DNA from: Planctomycetia bacterium
GTDB taxonomy: Bacteria > Planctomycetota > Planctomycetia > Gemmatales > Gemmataceae
Assembly (NCBI GenBank): GCA_005799265.1
Contig: SYHD01000215.1
Coordinates: 22,984 to 86,983 of the forward strand
Direction of reading: 5' to 3'
DNA: 64,000 nucleotides
The notes below the pieces were generated by a model. That model worked only from the letters and a program-made list of their open reading frames with translations. It was not told the origin of the DNA and did not search any database. Made by a program: the position numbers and the translations under genes. Below, one piece after another: positions 3,948-48,170 of this stretch. Position 1 is the first letter of the stretch, and every line of letters starts with the position of its first letter.

Positions 3948-3978
3948 GGGATTCTCCTAATCTACATAAGAAAGCCAT

Positions 3979-4044
3979 GGGCCGTTTAGCGCTCGAATTG
4001 AAGCGCCGGCGATCTGGCGCTTCAATTCGAGCGCTAAACGGCCC
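3979..4044. repeat. Palindromic repeat, PAL-1 subfamily c (perfect 29-bp arms)
   Basis: GGGCCGTTTAGCGCTCGAATTGAAGCGCC (3979-4007) is the exact reverse complement of 4016-4044, with an 8-nt loop. Lies in the intergenic gap between two co-directional minus-strand genes. Confidence 0.95.
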
Positions 4045-4053
4045 GTGGCGGAA

Positions 4054-6711: not shown

Positions 6712-7968
6712 CTATTTTTCGCCGGGTGGCACACCGCGCGCGAACGCCCAGTTGGCGGGTTCGTAGCGGATGTTTAGCTCTGGCGTTTTGATGACGCGGT
6801 TGTTGTCCGCGGCGCTGTGCATGAGGGCGTCGAGCATGCCCGTCGTGAGCAAGGTGCGCTCGACCGGATACGCCGGTTTGCCGGTGTGGATGGTGTGCTC
6901 GATGGCGCGCAGGAGATGGGCGAAGTGGCCGTACGGGACGCCGTTTTGCAAACGAAACCAGGTTGTCGACGGACGGGCTTCGCCCTTGATCTGGCCCGCG
7001 AACGCGAATTGCGCCGCCAGGCCGGTGCTCATGGCGACCGCGGCCCGGAGCCCGTCCCGATACTCGATCAAGAAAAACGTGGCGTTCTTGGCGAACTCCT
7101 TCGGTCGACCCTTGGGAGGCATCGGCGTCGTGGCGGCCGCGGCGTCAAGCAATTCGCGCGACCAGCGCCGTTCCTTCAACGCGGCGGCGATTGCCTCGCC
7201 GGTTACCGCCTGCACGCTGGCCACGCCGGTCTCGCCGCCTCGGCGCCGTTCCACCATGCACTGCAAGGTTTCCAGGGCGTGAAAGCCGTACGATTCCAGG
7301 CCGCCATAGCCCAGCGCCAACGCGCCGGTCAATTCGCAGCGCATCGGCAGGTTTAGCTCCGGCGTGCGCCAGGCGACAGGCAGTGACGAGCCGGCCAGGA
7401 ACGGGATATTCATCTCACGAGCGGTATCGACCATGTGCCGGGCGTCGCGCCAGGCGTAGGACAGGTGCTTGTCGTTGAAGAGCGGCAAAACGCGTTTATG
7501 TTTGCGGAACACGTCGACGATGGCGTCGAAGAAACGCCGGCGCGGATACATGTGCTGGCGCGTGTCCTTGGTGTAGGGATAGTTGCCGTGTTCGCCGATG
7601 CTCAAGACGCCGGCCACCGCGATTTTGCCGCCGCCGAGCGTGATGGCTTCTTCGATCGTGCGGGCGATACGGAAGTTGTGCTTCTTCGCGAGATCCCGGC
7701 TGAGATCATTCTTGGGGACCTGATCGGTGTAGAGGGTCGCGAGTCGCAGGGCGGGACCCGCGCCGCCGTCTTGATTGAAGCCTTCGAGGATCTTGCCGAC
7801 GATCACGTCGGCGTGCGAATTGCGGCGGTACTCCGTGACGATGGCGGCGACCGGCAAGCGTTCGCGTTTGTCGGGTTGACCGGCGCCCAGCAACGCGCCG
7901 CCCGAAGCGCTCGCCAACACGGCGCCTGTGTGCAAGCCGAATTCTCGCCGGGTGATGACATTGGCCAT
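6712..7968 (-). CDS. Tat-signal hypothetical protein
   Basis: ATG at 7968 is 6 nt after GGAG; GTG at 7983 is the ORF-track alternative. Twin-arginine-like ITRREFGLHTGAVLASASGGALLGAG. Family not recognised. Confidence 0.6.
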   Translation of the reverse strand: MANVITRREFGLHTGAVLASASGGALLGAGQPDKRERLPVAAIVTEYRRNSHADVIVGKILEGFNQDGGAGPALRLATLYTDQVPKNDLSRDLAKKHNFRIARTIEEAITLGGGKIAVAGVLSIGEHGNYPYTKDTRQHMYPRRRFFDAIVDVFRKHKRVLPLFNDKHLSYAWRDARHMVDTAREMNIPFLAGSSLPVAWRTPELNLPMRCELTGALALGYGGLESYGFHALETLQCMVERRRGGETGVASVQAVTGEAIAAALKERRWSRELLDAAAATTPMPPKGRPKEFAKNATFFLIEYRDGLRAAVAMSTGLAAQFAFAGQIKGEARPSTTWFRLQNGVPYGHFAHLLRAIEHTIHTGKPAYPVERTLLTTGMLDALMHSAADNNRVIKTPELNIRYEPANWAFARGVPPGEK

Positions 7969-9147: not shown

Positions 9148-9255
9148 AACCGCGAAACACCCAAATAACACGAAAAAGGGCCCTCCGGAAAGGAAATCCG
9201 CACCGCCTTCTTTTTCGTGTTATTCGGGTGTTTCGTGGTTGTCTGCGTTTTTTTT
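9148..9255 (+). terminator. Very long AT-rich hairpin followed by T8 (candidate intrinsic terminator or solitary palindromic element)
   Basis: Arm 9148-9178 AACCGCGAAACACCCAAATAACACGAAAAAG pairs with 9210-9240 (31 nt, one G.T and one A.C). The loop is 31 nt. TTTTTTTT at 9248-9255. Lies 18 nt after the stop of 8276-9130. Confidence 0.5.
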
Positions 9256-9337: not shown

Positions 9338-9403
9338 CGTGGCAGACGATTCCAATCGTGTGATCCGCTGGCGGAATGTCACACGATTGAACTCGGATGC
9401 CAC
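9338..9403 (+). repeat. PAL-3 element copy A (CGTGGCAGACGATTCCAATCGTGTGA ... TCACACGATTGAACTCGGATGCCAC)
   Basis: The first 27 nt are nearly identical to copy B (46018-46088, minus orientation). Inner stem CGTGTGA/TCACACG is perfect. The element ends 16 nt before ATG 9420 (GGAGG RBS in between). Confidence 0.8.
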
Positions 9404-20206: not shown

Positions 20207-20230
20207 GCGGGCATTCTATAACGACGGCCT

Positions 20231-20289
20231 CGTTTAGCGTTCGCAGTAAACCTGCGAGCCGCCTGGCGTTTCACTGCGAACGCTAAACG
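20231..20289. repeat. Palindromic repeat, PAL-1 subfamily a (CGTTTAGCGTTCGCAGT arms)
   Basis: CGTTTAGCGTTCGCAGT (20231-20247) is the perfect reverse complement of 20273-20289, with a 25-nt loop that extends the stem (AAAC/GTTT). Lies in the intergenic gap between co-directional minus genes. Confidence 0.9.
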
Positions 20290-20297
20290 AAAGGCGA

Positions 20298-24138: not shown

Positions 24139-24145
24139 TCCATCA

Positions 24146-24206
24146 GTTAGTCGGACGCGCAAGCGACGGACATAGAAAAAATCCGTCGCTTGCGCGTCCG
24201 GCTAAC
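24146..24206. repeat. Palindromic repeat, PAL-2 (GTTAG(T/C)CGGACGCGCAAGCGACGGA arms), intergenic copy
   Basis: 25-nt arms 24146-24170 and 24182-24206 with a single T.G position; the 11-nt loop is CATAGAAAAAA. Lies between convergent genes. It contains the TAG stop (24202-24204) of the minus-strand gene. Confidence 0.95.
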
Positions 24207-26442
24207 GGCTGATCGCCTCGATCTGGTAGCTGACGGATTTCTCGCCATGCCACACGACAGGCATTGCAGCGCCGTCGAGCAAGTCGATCATCAAATTCCG
24301 ACATTGCGCCTTTGATAGATAGCGGTCCGTCCAGTCTTCGGGTGAAAGCTTGATACGTTGCGGCCGATCGAACGTGATGCGCACGCTGCCGCCGAAGCGT
24401 GTCAACTTCACGGCGGTGATGTGATCCTGATATTCCGTCGTCGCCGCGGCCCATTGACCCTTCGATTGCAATTCGATGATCGTCGCGACTTCCTTGGCCT
24501 GCCTGCCTGCTTCCTTGAGAAAAATAGGAATCGTCTCGTACAGTTCTGTAACTTTGTCCTGCCCTGTCGAATTCGCCGAGGTTTCGATGCGGACCTTGCT
24601 TGAATCAAACGTGAAGGTGCGCGTGAGCTGGATGCGACCTTCGAGAACCTTGCCCTGGCCCAATTGTTCGGCCGGGAGCGTGCCGGTGATCTTGACGATG
24701 CTGGCGTTCTTGTCCTGACGAGTGATCACTTCGGGTTGGCGAATGCGCGCGGACGTGAAGACCTTGCCGTTGTACTTGGCGCCGCTGACCGCGTGCAGAG
24801 GCCAGAGGCGCCAGTCTTCGACGAGGTCAAAGCTTTTGTCCCAGGAGTTGCCGCCGCGCCGGCCGAGAATGACCGCGCCGGTTGTCGGGGTCCAGAACGC
24901 GGAGAGTTGCCCGCCGCCGAAGCCAAGTGGGCCGGCGAATTTGAAATGGCCGTCTTCCAGGCTTGGATAGCCGATGGGGCCGCCGTGCACGATGGCGGCA
25001 TAAGTGTTTTGTTTGGCGACAGTAAACGCGCCGGCGAAATCGCGCACAAAGTTCTCGGTACGCAGAAACGGCGATTTCAACCACGGGGAGTTTTCGTCCT
25101 GCAGCTTGAGCCGTTTCGCATGACTGCCGGGTGGATAGAATTCGTAGCCGTAGTTGACCGTGGCGGGAAAATTGAACGATTGCCACAAGCGCCAGCGCCA
25201 GGGATGCGAGGTCAGTTGTTCATTCTTGAGAAAGCCTCCTCCCTTGGGATTGACGGGGTTCTCCGCCAACTGTTGGCGAAACGCGCTGGCACGCTGATCG
25301 GGAGCTTTCCTGAGGTCATCCGCGGTCGGCAACTTGTTCAAATAAACCGCTTCATCGGTCACCAGTGAGGCGAAGGAGTCGCGCGCGATGCCCCATTCCC
25401 ATTGGTCACCCCAGGCGTCGCTCGATGTGCGCGAATTGAAATGGGTGGGCCCAATGTATCGCCCGTCCGGCTCCGGCAGGCACAGATGCGCACGCAAGCG
25501 ATAACAGCGCGTGACCGCGTCCTTGGCGAATGGCCAATCGCTGGCGAGCGCCGCCCAGGTCGCGAAGAAATTGCTCATGCCCTGGTAGCCCATATCGATG
25601 CCGCGCTGATCGAGAAAAAATCCCGCCGGGTGAAAGTGTTGCGGATCGGTGAACAGCCGTCGCGCATACGCCTCGGCGTCTTTCGTGAACGCCGGATCTT
25701 TGAGCGCCTGGCTGACGTACCACAGTCCGACCGTGGCGACGACTTCCAGGTTCGGCTCCTCTCCCTCCGGCCCCCAGTCGAACACGCGCTGCCCCATGCG
25801 CCGCAACCCGGTTTCATATGCTTTTTGCACATCAACGGGCAGCTGGTCCTTGAAGCCCGCATACGGATGCGCAAACAGGATCAATTGGCTGCCGAACCAG
25901 TCCGAGCGACTGCCGCCGCGTTCGGGATGGTGTTCGAGCTGATCGTCGAGCATCATCAGATGAATGCTCGCCGTGACGAAAGCGCGCAGCTTCAAGGCGC
26001 GATTGTGATAGTAAGGATTGCCTGGTTGTTTCCAGGTGACGAAGGCGATCAACGCCTCCGGACAAACCGGCGGCACGTGGACGCCTTCCGGGCGCTCCAA
26101 TGCGCTCAAGACGAACAGCGCCGGTGGCGCGTTTACCGCCGGGGCGCCGCGTTTGGTCCCGACCAGCGGCTGAGCCATAAGCGTGAACAGGTGCTGGCGA
26201 TATTGGTACTCGGCATCGGCGGGCGTCGGCTGAGACGTGATCGGCTCCTTCACGCCGTGGGTAAAGTCCTTCTCGGATAGCGTTGCCATGAACGCACGGA
26301 GTTGCTTTTGATACGCATGCTCCTGCGGCAGGGTTGCCCGCGGCGGCGGCGGCACGGGCACTTTTCGACCCCCCGCGCGAACTGCGGGATTGCCGAGGAT
26401 CAACAGGCCAAGAATGCACGCCGCGATTTTTTGTGCGTTCAT
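24202..26442 (-). CDS. Large secreted hypothetical protein
   Basis: ATG 26442 gives MNAQKIAACILGLLILGNPAVRAG. 746 aa with no family recognised. The upstream 65 codons of the track ORF are discarded. Confidence 0.6.
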   Translation of the reverse strand: MNAQKIAACILGLLILGNPAVRAGGRKVPVPPPPRATLPQEHAYQKQLRAFMATLSEKDFTHGVKEPITSQPTPADAEYQYRQHLFTLMAQPLVGTKRGAPAVNAPPALFVLSALERPEGVHVPPVCPEALIAFVTWKQPGNPYYHNRALKLRAFVTASIHLMMLDDQLEHHPERGGSRSDWFGSQLILFAHPYAGFKDQLPVDVQKAYETGLRRMGQRVFDWGPEGEEPNLEVVATVGLWYVSQALKDPAFTKDAEAYARRLFTDPQHFHPAGFFLDQRGIDMGYQGMSNFFATWAALASDWPFAKDAVTRCYRLRAHLCLPEPDGRYIGPTHFNSRTSSDAWGDQWEWGIARDSFASLVTDEAVYLNKLPTADDLRKAPDQRASAFRQQLAENPVNPKGGGFLKNEQLTSHPWRWRLWQSFNFPATVNYGYEFYPPGSHAKRLKLQDENSPWLKSPFLRTENFVRDFAGAFTVAKQNTYAAIVHGGPIGYPSLEDGHFKFAGPLGFGGGQLSAFWTPTTGAVILGRRGGNSWDKSFDLVEDWRLWPLHAVSGAKYNGKVFTSARIRQPEVITRQDKNASIVKITGTLPAEQLGQGKVLEGRIQLTRTFTFDSSKVRIETSANSTGQDKVTELYETIPIFLKEAGRQAKEVATIIELQSKGQWAAATTEYQDHITAVKLTRFGGSVRITFDRPQRIKLSPEDWTDRYLSKAQCRNLMIDLLDGAAMPVVWHGEKSVSYQIEAISR

Positions 26443-30931: not shown

Positions 30932-32020
30932 ATGCGGAATCGAATCCTCGGTAAAACCGACCTCGTCGTCAGCGAGCTTGCGTTCGGCAGCCTCTTCACC
31001 TCGTCCTTGGGCCCCGGCTTCGATGAAAGCCGCGCCGCTGTTCACAAGGCGCTCGAACTCGGCATCAACTACTTCGACACTGCGCCCGCCTACGCCAATA
31101 GCGAGGAGGTGCTCGGAAAAATTATGCACGGCATCAAGACGCCGACGATTCTCTCGACCAAACTCGGCGGCCGCCCGCAACCGTTCGAGCCGCGCAACTC
31201 GAAACAATTGCTCGACTCCGCCAAGGAAAGTCTGCGGCTGTTGCACCGCGACGTCATCGACATTCTATTCGTGCACGAGCCGGATCGCCCGCAACAATAC
31301 GATTGGTGGAGCGACCCCGAAGCGGCCTACGGTCCTGTCATCGATGTGCTAGAGCAGCTCAAGAAGCAAGGAGTGATTCGCTACACGGGCCTGGGCGGCA
31401 CGACGATGGCTGAGATGGCGCATCTCATTCGCTCAGACCGCTTCGATGTCGTCCTGACCGCGTTCAACTACAGCGCCCTCTTTCGCGAGGCGACGCACGA
31501 GGTTCTGCCCGCCGCGAAAGAGCGCAACATGGGCATCGTGCTGGGCTCCGTCTTGCAGCAAGGCGGGCTGGGCAGGCGTTATGACGTCGTGGTTCGCGCG
31601 AAGCCGGCGTGGCTGTCGAAAGCACGGCAGCAGCAGTTCCTCGCGTTCTATGAGCTGCTTGACGAGAGCGGGTTATCGATTGTCGAATTGTGCTTGCGCT
31701 TCGCGATTTCGGAAATCACACAGTTAGCCGGACGCGCAAGCGACGGACCGGGCCATCCGTCGCTTGCGCGTCCGGCTAACAATCTGGGCCATTGCGTGCT
31801 CATCGGCCCGAAGACGGCGAAGCAGGTCGAGGATTCCATCAATGCAGTCGAGAAGGGCCCGTTGCCGTCGGATGTGACGAAGCGGCTCGATGAGATCGCG
31901 GCGATGGTGCCGTATCGTCCATTCGAGGAGCCGATGATTCTGCCGCTCAATCGGCCGCGCGATTATTGGGGGCCGGGAAGTTCGAACGTCGGCGCTGGGG
32001 CGAAGGTCGGTAAGCTGTGA
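30932..32020 (+). CDS. Aldo/keto reductase carrying a 20-codon palindrome-derived insertion
   Basis: AKR motifs are present: NYFDTAPAYANSE (Asp/Tyr), LSTKLG (Lys), FVHEPD (His) and C-terminal CVLIGPKTAKQVEDSI. Residues QLAGRASDGPGHPSLARPAN are encoded by repeat 31721-31780. Confidence 0.85.
   Translation: MRNRILGKTDLVVSELAFGSLFTSSLGPGFDESRAAVHKALELGINYFDTAPAYANSEEVLGKIMHGIKTPTILSTKLGGRPQPFEPRNSKQLLDSAKESLRLLHRDVIDILFVHEPDRPQQYDWWSDPEAAYGPVIDVLEQLKKQGVIRYTGLGGTTMAEMAHLIRSDRFDVVLTAFNYSALFREATHEVLPAAKERNMGIVLGSVLQQGGLGRRYDVVVRAKPAWLSKARQQQFLAFYELLDESGLSIVELCLRFAISEITQLAGRASDGPGHPSLARPANNLGHCVLIGPKTAKQVEDSINAVEKGPLPSDVTKRLDEIAAMVPYRPFEEPMILPLNRPRDYWGPGSSNVGAGAKVGKL
31723..31780. repeat. Palindromic repeat, PAL-2, intragenic in-frame copy (in AKR gene)
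   Basis: Perfect 25-nt arms GTTAGCCGGACGCGCAAGCGACGGA / TCCGTCGCTTGCGCGTCCGGCTAAC with an 8-nt loop CCGGGCCA. Confidence 0.95.
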
Positions 32021-32022
32021 TT

Positions 32023-32074
32023 CGTTTAGCCGCGGTTCGCAGAGCCGAGCGGTTCTACGAACCGCGGCTAAACG
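32023..32074. repeat. Palindromic repeat, PAL-1 subfamily b
   Basis: CGTTTAGCCGCGGTTCGCAGA-gccgagcggt-TCTACGAACCGCGGCTAAACG, 21-nt arms with 1 mismatch. Lies between convergent genes. It contains the TAG stop (32068-32070) of the DUF1501 gene. Confidence 0.95.
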
Positions 32075-33504
32075 AGGATCTGATTGACAACCCGTGCTGG
32101 CTCGACGCCGGTCAAACGCATGTCCAATCCCTGATGGCGGTACGTCAAACGCGTGTGATCGATGCCCAGCGTGTGCAGCATGGTTGCGTGCAGATCGCGC
32201 ACGTGGACCGGGTTTTCGACAGCGCGATAACCCAACTCGTCGGTCGCGCCATAGGTGACGCCCCCCTTGATGCCGCCGCCCGCGAGCCACATCGAGTAGC
32301 CGCGGATGTGATGGTCGCGGCCTGGCGCTGAGCCCTTGAATTGCACCATTGGCGTGCGGCCGAACTCACCGCCCCAAATGATAAGCGTATCGTCGAGCAT
32401 GCCGCGAGCCTTGAGATCGCGAACAAGCGCGGCGGAGGGGCCGTCGCAATGGCCGGCGCAGATGCGCATGGTGTTGACGATGCTATCGTGCGTGTCCCAG
32501 TCGCGATGGTAGAGCTGGATGAAGCGGACACCGCGCTCGGCCAAACGACGTGCGAGTAGGCAATTATAGCCGAAGCTGCCGTCGGCCGCGCTGACGCCGT
32601 ACATCTCCTTGACGTGGCGAGGCTCGTTGGCGATGTCCATCAGCTCCGGCACGCTCGTTTGCATGCGGAAGGCCATCTCGTACTGGGCAATGCGCGTCTC
32701 GACTTCGGGATTGCGCGAGCGCTCGTTTTGCACCAGATTCAAGTCGCGAATCGCATCAATCGAGTCACGTTGCAAATTGCGTGATACGCCTGGCGGATTG
32801 CTCAGGTAGTGAACCGGATCGCCCGTGGAAGAGAATGGCACGCCCTGGTAGCGCCCCGGCAGAAAGCCCGCCGCCCATTGACGCTGCGAAATCGGCTGTG
32901 GATTGCGGCCGCCGAAGCTCGTCAACACGATGAAGCCGGGCAGGTTGTCGCTTTCGCTGCCCAGGCCGTAGGTGATCCACGAGCCCATGCTTGGCCGGCC
33001 GGAGATCTGCGTGCCGGTGTTCATCAGCGTGTGGGCGGGATCGTGATTGATCTGATCGGTGTGCATCGAGCGGACGATGGCGATGTCGTCGGCGATGCGG
33101 CTGATGTTCGGCAAAAGCTCTGATATCTCTTGCCCCGACTGCCCGGCCCGACGAAAGCGAAACTGTGGCGCGAAACATTTTAGCTCGGCGTTTTGAAGCT
33201 GGGCGATCGGCTGGCCGCGCGTGAACGATTCCGGCATCGGTTGCAGGTGTAGGCGCGCGAGCGCCGGCTTGTGATCGAACAATTCCAGATGCGACGGGCC
33301 GCCGGACATGTACAGGAAGATGACGCGCTTTGCCGTCGGCGCGAAGTGCGGCAAGTTGTTAGCCGAACGCGCAAGCGACGGCTGGGCTTGTTCGTCGCTT
33401 GCGCGTCCGGCTAACGTCATTGACGCCAGGGCTGCGGCGCCGAAGCCGATGGACGAGTCGCCGAGGAAGGCGCGGCGCGTGAGGTTGAGCTTCGTGTTGT
33501 ACAT
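32068..33504 (-). CDS. DUF1501 family protein (sulfatase-like, Tat signal) carrying a 20-codon palindrome-derived insertion
   Basis: ATG 33504 after GGAGAT. TRRAFLGD twin-arginine motif. SGGPSHLELFDHKP, HRDWDTH and GGEFGRTP motifs. Residues TLAGRASDEQAQPSLARSAN are encoded by repeat 33358-33417. Confidence 0.85.
   Translation of the reverse strand: MYNTKLNLTRRAFLGDSSIGFGAAALASMTLAGRASDEQAQPSLARSANNLPHFAPTAKRVIFLYMSGGPSHLELFDHKPALARLHLQPMPESFTRGQPIAQLQNAELKCFAPQFRFRRAGQSGQEISELLPNISRIADDIAIVRSMHTDQINHDPAHTLMNTGTQISGRPSMGSWITYGLGSESDNLPGFIVLTSFGGRNPQPISQRQWAAGFLPGRYQGVPFSSTGDPVHYLSNPPGVSRNLQRDSIDAIRDLNLVQNERSRNPEVETRIAQYEMAFRMQTSVPELMDIANEPRHVKEMYGVSAADGSFGYNCLLARRLAERGVRFIQLYHRDWDTHDSIVNTMRICAGHCDGPSAALVRDLKARGMLDDTLIIWGGEFGRTPMVQFKGSAPGRDHHIRGYSMWLAGGGIKGGVTYGATDELGYRAVENPVHVRDLHATMLHTLGIDHTRLTYRHQGLDMRLTGVEPARVVNQILV
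33358..33415. repeat. Palindromic repeat, PAL-2, intragenic in-frame copy (in DUF1501 gene)
   Basis: 23-nt arms 33358-33380 / 33393-33415 with one mismatch (A versus G); the 12-nt loop is GCTGGGCTTGTT. Confidence 0.9.
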
Positions 33505-33534
33505 GGACTTATCTCCGAGCCGCATGTGGCGAAA

Positions 33535-43904: not shown

Positions 43905-43929
43905 GTGGCATGGGATTGGAATCGTCTGC
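43905..43929 (-). repeat. PAL-3 half-element copy C (GCAGACGATTCCAATCCCATGCCAC on minus strand)
   Basis: Shares GCAGACGATTCCAATC with copy A and ATGCCAC with copies A and B. It ends 21 nt upstream of the rbfA-like ATG. Confidence 0.7.
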
Positions 43930-45016: not shown

Positions 45017-45997
45017 CTATTCTAGGACAATCACGCACGGATCAATGTCATCGCGTTTCGAGTTGAGCCCCGGCGTTGGCAGCAACTTTTGCGCGTGTCG
45101 ATCGTAGAGATAGATGTCGCGTTCCCCGTCCCCCTTGATGCGCTCGGAGACGAACACGAGATAGCGGCCATCGGGGCTCAGGTTCGGCGTCTGTTCGTTG
45201 GCGATTGAGTTGACGCCCGGCAATGGCAGAAAATTCTTCTTGGCCCGATCGTACAGATAGATGTCACGGCCCCCCATCCCATCAGGCCGATCCGACGCGA
45301 AGGCGACAAGATTGCCGTCCGCGCTCAGCGACGGTGTCAGATCGGCGAGCGGCGAGTTGAGCTCCGGCAGGGCAGCGACTTTGTCGTTCTGGCGATCGTA
45401 TAGGTAAATATCCGCAGCGCCGACGCCGTCCTTCTGATTGGAGACGTACGCCAGCCAGCGGCCGTCGGCGCTTAGCGCGGGCATCCGTTCGTCGTACCTC
45501 GTCGAATTGACACCGGGTACGTCGAGGTACTTCTTGCTGGCGAATTCAAATAGCATCACGTCCCAGCGTTGGCTCGCACCGGGCTTGTCCCACGAGGCGT
45601 AGGCGATCAGTGTGCCGTCGCTGTTGATCGTCGGATGAAGCTGCGCATTCTTCGACGTGTTGATGGCGGGCGGCGTCACGAGCTTCTTGTCGGCCATGTC
45701 CCAGAGGAAGATCTTGCTGACCTCGTTCTCCAGCTCGGACGCGAAGACGCAAAGCTTGCTGTTCTTCGACAGGATCGCGTGGTAGTCCTGGCGATTGGAG
45801 ACGGTCGGGACGTTGCCGACGATCTTGCCCTGGGCGACGCCGTCGTGTTCGTAGAAGTAAATTTGCGCGTGCTTGGGGCGATCGCGATAGGAGGAGAGGG
45901 CGATCAGGAGGCGGTTAGGAGAGCCTTCTTGCGGCTGCTGTGCAAGGACGAAAAACGGGGCGCAACCGATCAGAAGCAAAAGGAGCCAACGATTCAT
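45017..45997 (-). CDS. Secreted PD40/TolB-like beta-propeller protein
   Basis: ATG 45997 gives MNRWLLLLLIGCAPFFVLAQQ. Repeated P.LS.DG..L.F.S.R..G.G..DIYLYDR blades. It ends 7 nt before the epimerase start. Confidence 0.7.
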   Translation of the reverse strand: MNRWLLLLLIGCAPFFVLAQQPQEGSPNRLLIALSSYRDRPKHAQIYFYEHDGVAQGKIVGNVPTVSNRQDYHAILSKNSKLCVFASELENEVSKIFLWDMADKKLVTPPAINTSKNAQLHPTINSDGTLIAYASWDKPGASQRWDVMLFEFASKKYLDVPGVNSTRYDERMPALSADGRWLAYVSNQKDGVGAADIYLYDRQNDKVAALPELNSPLADLTPSLSADGNLVAFASDRPDGMGGRDIYLYDRAKKNFLPLPGVNSIANEQTPNLSPDGRYLVFVSERIKGDGERDIYLYDRHAQKLLPTPGLNSKRDDIDPCVIVLE

Positions 45998-46017
45998 GAG
46001 AGGTCTCGCAGGATTAT

Positions 46018-46088
46018 CGTGGCATACGATTGGAATCGCGTGATTGCGATGGCAATCCTTAATCACACGATTGGAATCGTATGCCACG
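46018..46088 (-). repeat. PAL-3 element copy B (full 71-nt palindrome)
   Basis: Minus strand: CGTGGCATACGATTCCAATCGTGTGATT-aaggattgccatcgc-AATCACGCGATTCCAATCGTATGCCACG. The arms are complementary except for the central CC and one T/C. The element ends about 20 nt upstream of ATG 45997, and its conserved ATGCCAC ends 21 nt upstream. Confidence 0.85.
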
Positions 46089-46092
46089 TTTT

Positions 46093-47391
46093 TCAGCCCA
46101 CAATCTCCTGCACCGGCAGCGCCTCGCGCAAGAATGGCCGCATCCGGGCGTCGGTCGTGTCGATGCCCACCAGCCGATACAAGCTCGCCGCGAACTGCGC
46201 GGGACCGACCGGTGTGTGCGCGGGGCGTGAACCAGTGGCGTCACTGGCGCCGACGATGCGGCCCCCTTCGAGACCGCCGCCCGCCAGCAGATACGTGAAG
46301 CAATACGGAAAGTGATCGCGCGCTCCGAATCGATTGACGCGCGGCGTGCGGCCGAACTCGCCGCCGGCGACGATCAGCGTGTTCTGCAACATGCGGCGTT
46401 CTTGCAGATCGGTCAAGAGCGCGGTGAGGCCCTGATCAAGCCGTGGGCACAAATGCTGTTCCATGCGGACCATGCCGCCCAGGTCGGCGCCGTGCACGTC
46501 CCAGGCGTCCCAGGCGGGGCCGTCGTACCATTTGATTTGCACGAATCGGCTCCCCGCTTGTACGAGCCGGCGGGCCAGTAAGCACGATTGGCCGAACAGA
46601 TTGGCGCCGTAGCGGTCGCGCAACGCTTCGTTCTCGCGCGCCAGGTCGAATGCGTCGCGCACCTGCGTCGACGTCAGCATGTCGACAGCACGTTGATAGT
46701 TTTGATCCATGCGTTCGATGGCTTCGTTGGCGTGCGCCGTCTGACGGAAGCGATCGACCGCAGTCAAGAGTTCGCGGCGCTGGCTGAAGCGGTCGGCCTG
46801 CATGTCGGCCGAGAGTTGGAACTGCGGCAGCGCGGCGCGGTTGCCCGTCGGGTCGGCGATCTCGACGGGGAAGAACGGGGCGCCCAGACGGCCGCCGCCA
46901 ACGCCGAGCCGCGAGCCGATGTGTACATACGGCGGCATGTTGCCGCGGTAGCCCTGGATGCGCGAGATGACGGCGCCGTATGATGTCGTCTCGCCGGGGA
47001 AGCCGGTCAGCATCGGGATCGGCGAATGGGCGTCGATGTTGTGCGACATCGACCGCACCAGCACGCACTTGTCCATGTGCCGCGACAGGCGCGGCAACAG
47101 CTCGCAGATCTGCATGCCGGGGACGTTAGTCTGGATCGGGCCGTATGGGCCGCGAATCGTGTCGGGGGTATCGGGCTTGGGATCGAAAGTCTCGAAGTGA
47201 CTCGGGCCACCGTCGAGCCAGAGAAAGATGACCGAGACATCGCGGCTGCCGGCGCCGGGCGATGCGGCCGCTTTCGTGCGGAACCAATCCGCGAGCGTAA
47301 GCCCGGCGATGCCCAGCCCGCCGACGGTGAGCATGTCGCGTCTTGTCAGGCCGCTGCAATTGCGAACCGCGGTTTTGCCGATGGTGAACAT
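46093..47391 (-). CDS. DUF1501 family protein (second copy, no adjacent DUF1553 partner)
   Basis: ATG 47391. LTRRDMLTVGG Tat-like motif. LDGGPSHFETFDPKPD, WDVHG and GGEFGRTPRVN. Confidence 0.85.
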   Translation of the reverse strand: MFTIGKTAVRNCSGLTRRDMLTVGGLGIAGLTLADWFRTKAAASPGAGSRDVSVIFLWLDGGPSHFETFDPKPDTPDTIRGPYGPIQTNVPGMQICELLPRLSRHMDKCVLVRSMSHNIDAHSPIPMLTGFPGETTSYGAVISRIQGYRGNMPPYVHIGSRLGVGGGRLGAPFFPVEIADPTGNRAALPQFQLSADMQADRFSQRRELLTAVDRFRQTAHANEAIERMDQNYQRAVDMLTSTQVRDAFDLARENEALRDRYGANLFGQSCLLARRLVQAGSRFVQIKWYDGPAWDAWDVHGADLGGMVRMEQHLCPRLDQGLTALLTDLQERRMLQNTLIVAGGEFGRTPRVNRFGARDHFPYCFTYLLAGGGLEGGRIVGASDATGSRPAHTPVGPAQFAASLYRLVGIDTTDARMRPFLREALPVQEIVG

Positions 47392-47417
47392 GAGCTGCCC
47401 CCCCCCCTGAAATATCG

Positions 47418-48170
47418 TCACGCGGAGCATGCCGATAACGGTCTTACCTGAACGATGAATTGTGCAAATCCGAGTGGGTCCAACGTGCGCTCGATGCGAA
47501 ACGAGCGCCCGAGTACGTCGGAACGCAGCCAGCCTTCCTCGGCCGGCGTCGCTTGATACTCTTCATTTGTGAGTCGAAGTATGTCGAAGACTACGCCGTC
47601 ACCGCGCGCGTCGACAAGCCAATACTCGGGAATCTGTGCCTTCCGGTACAAATCGCGCAGCGTCTTGAGATCCTTGACCTTCGAGCCGTCGCTGACGATC
47701 TCCAGGATGATGTCTGGAGTTCCCTCAAGTCGCATGTAGCCCAGGTTTTGGCCGGGGATCAGCCGCAGTCTCCCGGCCTGCATCGTGGCCCAATGATAGT
47801 AAAGGCCGTCGGGTTCGGTTGACAGGTTGGCCGCCTCGTTAACGAGCAGCATTCGATCCGGCACGAAACGTCCGGTTGGGTATTGTACCAAGAAAGAGTA
47901 GAACATGCCATTGAAGGCCTGTTTGGCCTGGTTGTGCGTAAGGAATTCTTCCATGCTCGCGTCCACCCAGATTTTGCCGTCAAGATAAGAAACCCAGCCA
48001 TTCTCCGGGTACGCGTCAGATTCTACCCAGCGGCGATAGTCATCCAGGCTATCGATCCAACCGGGTATCGTGATCTTGTTCTCGACAACAACATCGGCGC
48101 GGCGCGTAGTCGCCTTCACTGTAGGCACAGCGACGCTCGTTTGCGGCATAGGTGAGAGGACAGTGCTCAT
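47418..48170 (-). CDS. Uma2 (DUF820) family endonuclease-like protein
   Basis: The C-terminal core PDIILEIVSDGSKVKDLKTLRDLYRKAQIPEYWLVD fits the Uma2 PD-(D/E)xK pattern (PD..vEv.S......d...K...Y...gv.eYW.vD). Confidence 0.7.
   Translation of the reverse strand: MSTVLSPMPQTSVAVPTVKATTRRADVVVENKITIPGWIDSLDDYRRWVESDAYPENGWVSYLDGKIWVDASMEEFLTHNQAKQAFNGMFYSFLVQYPTGRFVPDRMLLVNEAANLSTEPDGLYYHWATMQAGRLRLIPGQNLGYMRLEGTPDIILEIVSDGSKVKDLKTLRDLYRKAQIPEYWLVDARGDGVVFDILRLTNEEYQATPAEEGWLRSDVLGRSFRIERTLDPLGFAQFIVQVRPLSACSA

Follow-up and report, generated by a model that had tools for sequence, protein, structure and literature searches.

The locus analyzed here poses a simple question: why does a long and nearly perfect palindrome occupy the short gap between the stop codon of one gene and the start codon of the next? 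A sequence-only reading had left three answers standing side by side, namely, a structured 5' leader RNA, a tandem operator for a dimeric regulator, and a mobile palindrome family. The palindrome, named PAL-3, lies in a 64-kb stretch of DNA that we call the window (G+C content, 60.6%), whose proteins have their closest named relatives in Gemmataceae MAGs. An exhaustive Hamming scan recovered only three PAL-3 loci in the window, copies A, B, and C, and it is copy B that separates a DUF1501 gene from a PD40 gene 95 nt away (Table 1).

Table 1. PAL-3 copies in the window, the parts of copy B, and the genes that flank it
Feature	Position	Strand	Description
PAL-3 copy A, doublet	9339..9403		1 and 3 mismatches in its units; 16 nt upstream of ATG 9420 of a fibronectin-III repeat protein
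PAL-3 copy C, single recognizable unit	43905..43928	+	3 mismatches; partner decayed beyond detection; 21 nt upstream of rbfA-like ATG 43883
Downstream gene of copy B, secreted PD40/TolB-like beta-propeller protein, 326 aa	45017..45997	-	ATG 21 nt after ...ATGCCAC
PAL-3 copy B, complete REP doublet (REPIN-like palindrome)	46018..46088		In the gap that separates the DUF1501 stop codon from the PD40 start codon
REP unit 2 of copy B, inverted, GTGGCATACGATTGGAATCGCGTG	46019..46042	+	1 substitution; central CC flipped to GG
Spacer of copy B between its 24-nt units	46043..46063		Copy specific; att...aat ends lengthen the stem; remainder in no other copy
REP unit 1 of copy B, GTGGCATACGATTCCAATCGTGTG	46064..46087	-	Exact family consensus; unpaired GTGG tag and hairpin CATACGATT-CC-AATCGTGTG
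Upstream gene of copy B, DUF1501 protein, 445 aa	46093..47430	-	TGA stop ends 4 nt before copy B

Structure of copy B and its surroundings

Read on the minus strand from 46088 to 46018, copy B has the layout CGTGGCAT-ACGATTCCAATCGT-GTGATT-aaggattgccatcgc-AATCAC-GCGATTCCAATCGT-ATGCCACG, with aaggattgccatcgc as a 15-nt loop, in agreement with its first description. The two 14-mer boxes start at 46080 and 46039, 41 nt apart, and the terminal ATGCCAC ends at 46019, 21 nt before ATG 45997; both placements had been given correctly, as had the identical distance that separates copy C from the rbfA-like ATG 43883. The outer and inner segments had been described as separately complementary; they are complementary, but together with the boxes they form one continuous 28-bp stem broken only by a CC/CC mismatch. 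A repeat finder likewise returned arms of 28 nt that are 89% complementary around the 15-nt loop. The mismatch arises from one box whose central dinucleotide is inverted with respect to the family consensus: in nearly all other PAL-3 copies, the central CC of one arm pairs with the GG of the other, and the flip from CC to GG that one copy B arm carries matches the outcome of a loop inversion in the small hairpin. For copy A the earlier description had to be amended, as it matches at 26 of its first 27 nt (GTGGCAG, not GTGGCAT) rather than at all of them, and its start codon lies 16 nt away, not 21 nt.

The copy B palindrome is real and far beyond chance. Folded as RNA it reaches -40 kcal/mol (z = -7.8), a value equaled by none of 200 shuffles, and folded as DNA it reaches -25.5 kcal/mol (z = -9.1). 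With up to two mismatches allowed, the 14-mer box occurs six times in the window against 0.66 expected, a number that none of 100 shuffles attained, while the 21-mer GTGGCATACGATTCCAATCGT with up to three mismatches occurs four times against 0 expected. If the DUF1501 and PD40 genes are cotranscribed, their transcript carries the -40 kcal/mol hairpin 4 to 5 nt past the stop codon of the former and 21 nt ahead of the start codon of the latter.

A consensus scan in and beside copy B detected no sigma-70-like promoter and no intrinsic terminator. The candidate sigma-54 or sigma-70 promoter within the arm, TGGCAT-N4-TTCC, was dismissed for its wrong spacing and wrong -12 element, and a terminator for the flanks of the hairpin, which on both strands are T rich before it and A rich after it, the reverse of what a terminator has. 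The intergenic region that holds copy A also contains, about 100 nt farther upstream, a separate inverted repeat at 9148-9240, with 31-nt arms (AACCGCGAAACACCCAAATAACACGAAAAAG) and a 31-nt spacer.

The PAL-3 family and its 24-nt unit

A degenerate arm pattern scanned over 185,579 species genomes gave mostly single chance matches, as the information content of the pattern predicts, the exception being the Gemmataceae MAG DAIOGM01, which was matched on four contigs and with both arms on three of them. The metagenome scan returned 57 loci, mostly from soil assemblies of the same project series as the window, and the viral contigs that were scanned for the arm gave no match. From this MAG and the soil metagenomes, we obtained 46 nonredundant full doublets, drawn from many incompletely assembled genomes, and a Hamming scan counted 144 arms with four or fewer mismatches across the collected loci. 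Three copies per 64 kb would extrapolate to a few hundred per genome.

All 46 elements consist of the 24-nt unit GTGGCATACGATTCCAATCGTGTG arranged as an inverted doublet, span 56 to 72 bp, and are conserved in their arms only. The conservation of the arms is in part an artifact of the search, which forced one arm to match an exact 21-mer and biased the set of copies toward intact arms; the partner arm, which fell outside the pattern and provides an unbiased sample, shows no mismatch in about half of the copies and, as a rule, no more than two. The spacers between the units are mostly 8 to 25 nt long and, apart from their att...aat ends, have a sequence unique to each copy, and the spacing from box to box ranges across the family from about 32 to 52 nt and more. 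Immediately outside the units stand a C on the left and a G on the right in 81% of the copies, followed by an outward A-rich run that is gone within 5 nt. With arms that hardly vary and spacers that cannot be aligned, the family is better recovered by exact and Hamming scans than it would be by a covariance model. A protein search with the concatenated arm-encoded peptides yielded 0 candidates, though one GatB protein (P0001) contains such peptides.

On its own, the 24-mer folds into an unpaired GTGG followed by an 8-bp stem with a 4-nt loop. Between this tag and a perfect 6-bp core lies CAT, which pairs only via T·G, or via C-G in the common T7C variant; the DNA fold has -4.1 kcal/mol in the former case and -7.5 kcal/mol in the latter. 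Among 26 distinct arm variants, T2, G3, and G4 of the tag are invariant, and G1 is retained in more than 90%. Within the arm, pairs 5-24, 6-23, and 10-19 have changed on both sides across these variants (7 cells), and neither this covariation nor the percentage of paired positions was reached by any of 500 shuffles, with all slid-register controls far lower. For the 24-bp stem formed from arm to arm, no covariation was detected, every measure being equal to the shuffled expectation, and arm variants such as CCGATCG, ACCATT..AATGGT, and GTGGCAC are usually unmirrored in the partner arm. Covariation inside the arm and none between the arms indicates that the recognized object is the single tagged hairpin, and the long palindrome exists because two copies of the unit face each other.

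Several loci depart from the simple doublet. One (L040 2857-3012, the same locus as L077 4818-4973) carries two tandem doublets of a PAL-3 subfamily, GTGGACTACGATTCCAATCGTGG(C/A), in a small BIME-like cluster, and its arms show a compensatory change at pair 6-23, from A-T to C-G. At another (L066, positions ~6950-7068), the spacer holds a nested palindrome (CCCCTCTCCCC tgtactc AGGGGAGAGGGG plus flanks); the second arm of this copy is decayed, and the element ends 15 nt before an ATG. Two contigs that are 99.94% identical over 10.5 kb have two of their six differences in a single 24-nt PAL-3 arm (L067 6281-6304 versus L080 6011-6034), which could mark either a mutational hot spot in the hairpin or an assembly error.

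Two candidates for a longer, autonomous form were rejected. A pair of arms 808 bp apart (the 832-bp case) lies on a contig, L083, that as a whole is a fold-back palindrome and an assembly artifact, and two copies 780 bp apart that might have bounded a RAYT cassette (L073) enclose an interval that belongs to a 635-aa ORF and contains no transposase. The L083 contig (Ga0137405_1345610) folds back on itself nearly perfectly, with inverted repeats across all 6.7 kb.

Position relative to genes and traces of mobility

To relate the copies to genes, we used a codon-usage gene caller trained on the window, so that starts are approximate, and took as the null random intergenic positions in the same loci put through the same procedure. 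Of 39 intergenic copies, 19 (49%) have an arm end 10 to 26 nt short of a start codon, against 16.7% for the null (p = 4e-6), and a stop codon lies 3 to 13 nt from an arm end in 18 of 39 (46%) against 8.4% (p = 4e-10). The placement near start codons that had been noted for copies B and C holds family-wide. Such proximity to starts and stops means that many copies fill nearly the entire gap between two genes: a residual gap of 40 nt or less was counted by eye in ~17 copies, and gaps of this kind make up only ~1.6% of intergenic bases. In one divergent gene pair (L093), the element leaves 26 and 25 nt on its two sides, and other copies lie between convergent gene ends.

The functional coherence of downstream genes that had been raised as a possibility was not found. 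They encode proteins as unrelated as an SMP-30/gluconolactonase-like protein (SGL), DapA, DUF1501, Band 7, PdxA, and PdxJ, and further GFO/IDH/MocA, NAD kinase, T2SS protein F, fn3, PD40, and RbfA.

Five copies are read through inside genes: in gatB (L069), in the genes for a FAD-linked oxidase (L053), a membrane protein (L078), and a 1,481-aa protein (L099), and in a further ORF (L073). Five of the six frames of the arms are free of stop codons, and the sixth ends in TGA at the arm-spacer junction if an A begins the spacer. The GatB protein with the insertion has the sequence HVP-L[RGIRFQSCDEPGAITRLESYAT]NAA-F and gains ~21 aa in a loop; the insertion is missing from all 119 nearest homologs (down to ~66% identity), which have HVP-QPDGS-F or a comparably short loop instead. 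In the DNA, gtgccgctcc[64 nt]gaatgcggccttc at the filled site corresponds to gtgccgcaac-cggatggctccttc at the empty site of a relative with 83% identity, a net gain of 63 nt with no duplicated target. The idea that the spacer of the gatB copy is a target-derived loop, suggested by its faint likeness to the displaced codons, was abandoned, as the DNA alignment puts all displaced codons outside the element. In the last of the five, a 635-aa ORF (L073 32-1939, minus strand) crosses the PAL-3 copy at 1063-1123, between its N-terminal and polyprenyl-synthase domains, and represents either a linker insertion or two genes fused via the stop-free repeat.

The same GatB loop, HVP-QPDGS-F, carries other, unrelated insert peptides in P0043, P0047, P0048, P0072, P0075, P0113, P0114, P0117, and P0118, for example, ..SPLPLSPEGRGERGEG... 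The GatB inserts of these other lineages look like translated palindromes of the CCCCTCTCCCC/GGGGAGAGGGG type, and the surface loop of GatB appears to be a permissive hot spot for the insertion of repeats.

None of 44 copies has a direct repeat of at least 4 nt at any of five boundary offsets, and repeats of 2 to 3 nt occur at chance level, so that no target-site duplication was detected. Orthologs of the window locus with 74 to 80% identity in the PD40 protein lack the element. A 4-nt overlap (ATGA) joins the DUF1501 and PD40 genes in two of the relatives (L112 and the P0131 contig); what occupies the junction is an extra 117-aa gene in L111, PAL-3 in the window, and a set of three small genes in L110. 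Copy B separates two genes that are translationally coupled in relatives. The junction is altogether very plastic among relatives (window 45997-47430 compared with L110, L111, and L112). At the divergent intergenic region occupied by PAL-3 in L093, the orthologous region in L082 has an unrelated palindrome, GCGGCTTAGCG...CGCTAAGCCGC. Among the answers proposed at the outset, the mobile palindrome family is the one supported, with dozens of copies in unrelated contexts, absence at orthologous loci, and in-frame copies in genes.

Interpretation of PAL-3 and sister palindromes

Taken together, these data make it likely that PAL-3 is a nonautonomous mobile repeat of the REP/REPIN type. The closest known systems are the REPINs and GTAG-tagged REPs (Bertels and Rainey 2011, PMC3337134, PMC3116915; Di Nocera et al. 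2013, PMC3733652). Like a REP, each PAL-3 unit combines a short, imperfect palindrome with a 5' tag that stays unpaired; the GTAG tag of REPs has GTGG among its described variants, as in Opitutus terrae GTAG-20, and the stem of 8 to 9 bp in PAL-3 is within the REP range of 6 to 9 bp (PMC3733652). As in REPINs, two inverted units form a long hairpin around a spacer whose length and sequence differ in every copy, REPIN spacers being of many lengths with no two identical (PMC3337134), and a nonpalindromic center marks the orientation of the unit (CC/GG in PAL-3 and AA/TT in Pseudomonas fluorescens SBW25). REPs and REPINs also share with PAL-3 the lack of target-site duplications, a mostly extragenic location near ORF ends with occasional copies within ORFs (PMC3733652), and decayed singlets, of which copy C is the PAL-3 example. 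In a nonsystematic comparison, its sequence resembles no REP consensus in the cited REP literature, and to that extent PAL-3 represents a known kind of element in a family not described before. It further differs from known REPINs in its host, an uncultured Gemmataceae-type planctomycete, and in that no associated RAYT was found in the loci scanned; its spacers (8 to 25 nt) are much shorter than those of the common SBW25 REPINs, and positions just ahead of starts are as frequent among its copies as positions past stops.

Other repeat classes share individual traits with PAL-3. Rickettsia palindromic elements are likewise found in frame in functional genes and lengthen a tolerant surface region of the protein by a short peptide (PMC3733652); unlike PAL-3, which is mostly intergenic and conserved in its arms only, they are ~100 to 150 bp long, have a conserved interior, and inhabit reduced intracellular genomes, and a comparison of PAL-3 with their consensus found no sequence resemblance. 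The BIMEs of Escherichia coli, clusters of REPs that are bound by IHF and gyrase and lie within operons, also place alternating units in short operon gaps, and the PAL-3 locus with two tandem doublets is comparable, but their linkers belong to a few conserved types.

As a selfish repeat of this ordinary kind, PAL-3 is not a dedicated regulator of the gene downstream. It is probably mobilized by a Y1 (RAYT-type) transposase. In the mechanism we envisage, PAL-3 would spread through single-stranded DNA hairpins: the tag and hairpin of each unit would be recognized by a RAYT-type Y1/HUH transposase that acts in trans from a gene at another place in the genome. Insertion may prefer short A/T-rich tracts, which at 60% G+C would be found mainly just past stop codons and just before ribosome-binding sites, and purifying selection would remove those insertions that damage an ORF or a ribosome-binding site. 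The tight packing of copies against gene ends most likely reflects these two processes, A/T-tract insertion and purifying selection. Effects on expression, such as uncoupling the translation of two genes, stabilizing mRNA ends, or impeding a terminating ribosome, would then be by-products of the element rather than its raison d'être. By analogy with the REPs of E. coli, the -40 kcal/mol hairpin of copy B might impede the ribosome that terminates on a DUF1501-PD40 transcript.

The planctomycete Rhodopirellula baltica has many tyrosine transposases with flanking repeats (PMC3733652). REP and REPIN families are defined by their association with a cognate RAYT gene (Y1 transposase, PF01797) of the same genome, which as a rule has the same REPs on its flanks. 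A RAYT or IS200-like gene was not among the 20 genes scanned of the 47 predicted in the window, and a regular-expression search in all six frames found no HUH...Y1 motif in ~110 loci, comprising ~0.9 Mb of fragments. With one RAYT against hundreds of repeat copies per genome, its absence from fragments says little. A point against the REPIN reading is that the CAT following the tag pairs only via T·G, so that the hairpin is short and, as DNA, weak at the -4.1 kcal/mol given above. Furthermore, the enrichment near starts and stops exceeds what passive tolerance alone would produce, leaving room for targeting or function.

In these planctomycetes, REP doublets might have been co-opted as junction elements, kept at or aimed to positions 3 to 13 nt past stops and 10 to 26 nt before starts, with a position bias that is functional; we hold this to be unlikely, and if it were true, the hairpin or a bound protein could uncouple the translation of neighbors, fix mRNA ends, or, where the element nearly fills a divergent intergenic region, provide outward transcription starts. 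A rival reading of PAL-3 as a co-opted cis-element, which we judge quite unlikely, has the boxes or units bound by a protein, be it a domesticated RAYT, a nucleoid protein, or a regulator that acts as a dimer, or has the hairpin modulate expression at cistron junctions as an insulator, mRNA stabilizer, translation-termination brake, or carrier of outward promoters. It would account for arms that stay conserved while spacers are saturated with change, for the enrichment before starts (p = 4e-6) and after stops (p = 4e-10), and for elements that nearly fill a divergent region, as in L093 with its 26 and 25 nt left, where promoters would have to overlap them. Liang, Rudd, and Deutscher are also said to have reported in 2015 that E. 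coli REPs no more than 15 nt from a stop codon reduce upstream translation. Against it stand the unrelated functions of the neighboring genes, the unfixed box spacing, the copies in frame within genes and between convergent gene ends, the missing element at orthologous loci with 74 to 80% protein identity, and the lack of a detected sigma-70-like promoter or terminator, as well as the near-identical strains that put two of six differences over 10.5 kb into one arm, which speaks against constraint in place, if it is not assembly noise. The tandem operator for a dimeric regulator is not supported either: its boxes stand at spacings from about 32 to 52 nt and more, the genes beside them are unrelated in function, and some copies lie between convergent gene ends or within coding sequence.

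Bacterial MITEs (Correia/NEMIS, ERIC, RUP, and Nezha) are, like PAL-3, small, noncoding, bounded by inverted repeats, and located beside genes, and they are cotranscribed with genes and can change mRNA stability or supply promoters. If PAL-3 were a classical MITE, it would belong to an insertion sequence with a DDE transposase, whose terminal inverted repeats would be the arms of 24 to 28 nt, and the short copies would have arisen by internal deletion and been moved in trans. The perfect inverted ends of 24 to 28 bp, the small size without coding capacity, the many dispersed copies, and the favored A/T-rich flanks fit such an origin, which is nevertheless very unlikely: PAL-3 shows neither the target-site duplications nor the conserved interior nor the cognate insertion sequence with a DDE transposase that MITEs have, the only longer arm-bounded case (832 bp) being the assembly artifact, and the covariation lies within each arm and not between the arms. 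A structured RNA, which could be a small RNA gene or could serve the PD40 gene as 5' leader or riboregulator, finds its appeal in the very stable hairpin 21 nt before a start codon and in the similar placement of copies A and C. This answer is extremely improbable and is already largely refuted by the comparative data, as the long stem shows no covariation beyond the shuffled expectation, the loops are unconstrained, the symmetric element marks neither strand as the transcribed one, the neighboring genes are unrelated, and the element is missing at orthologous PD40 loci. Rfam gave no match at the gathering score in the whole window, and around copy B only chance-level miRNA and snoRNA matches (best E of ~0.3, for a miRNA).

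The REP/REPIN reading extends REPIN-type elements to soil planctomycetes and accounts for a "conserved motif upstream of genes" that recurs in Gemmataceae-type genomes: the motif is selfish repeat DNA and should not be annotated as an operator, leader RNA, or promoter. PAL-3 splits translationally coupled gene pairs and enters essential genes such as gatB in frame, and it accounts for spurious N-terminal extensions or odd peptide inserts such as VAYDSNRV..., RGIRFQSC..., and ...TRLESYAT. Its tight packing against gene ends offers a testable case of repeats that are either merely tolerated or used at cistron junctions.

The other palindrome families in the window behave like PAL-3. A second family, GTTAGCCGGACGCGCAAGCGACGGA with an inverted partner, occurs at 24141-24211, 31723-31780, and 33358-33415, with two copies in frame in genes, one in an aldo/keto reductase gene at 30932-32020 (...AISEIT[QLAGRASDGPGHPSLARPAN]NLGH...) and one in a DUF1501 gene at 32068-33525, just past the signal region ([TLAGRASDEQAQPSLARSAN]). 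A peptide of this family is also present in a PriA gene (L070), and a sister palindrome family explains peptide inserts of the type LAGRASDG...PSLARPAN. A third family, (TC)GTTTAGCG...CGCTAAACGA, is found at 3974-4049, 20230-20290, and 32022-32075, where its copies fill short intergenic gaps as PAL-3 does, and the GCGGCTTAGCG...CGCTAAGCCGC element of L082 is related to it.
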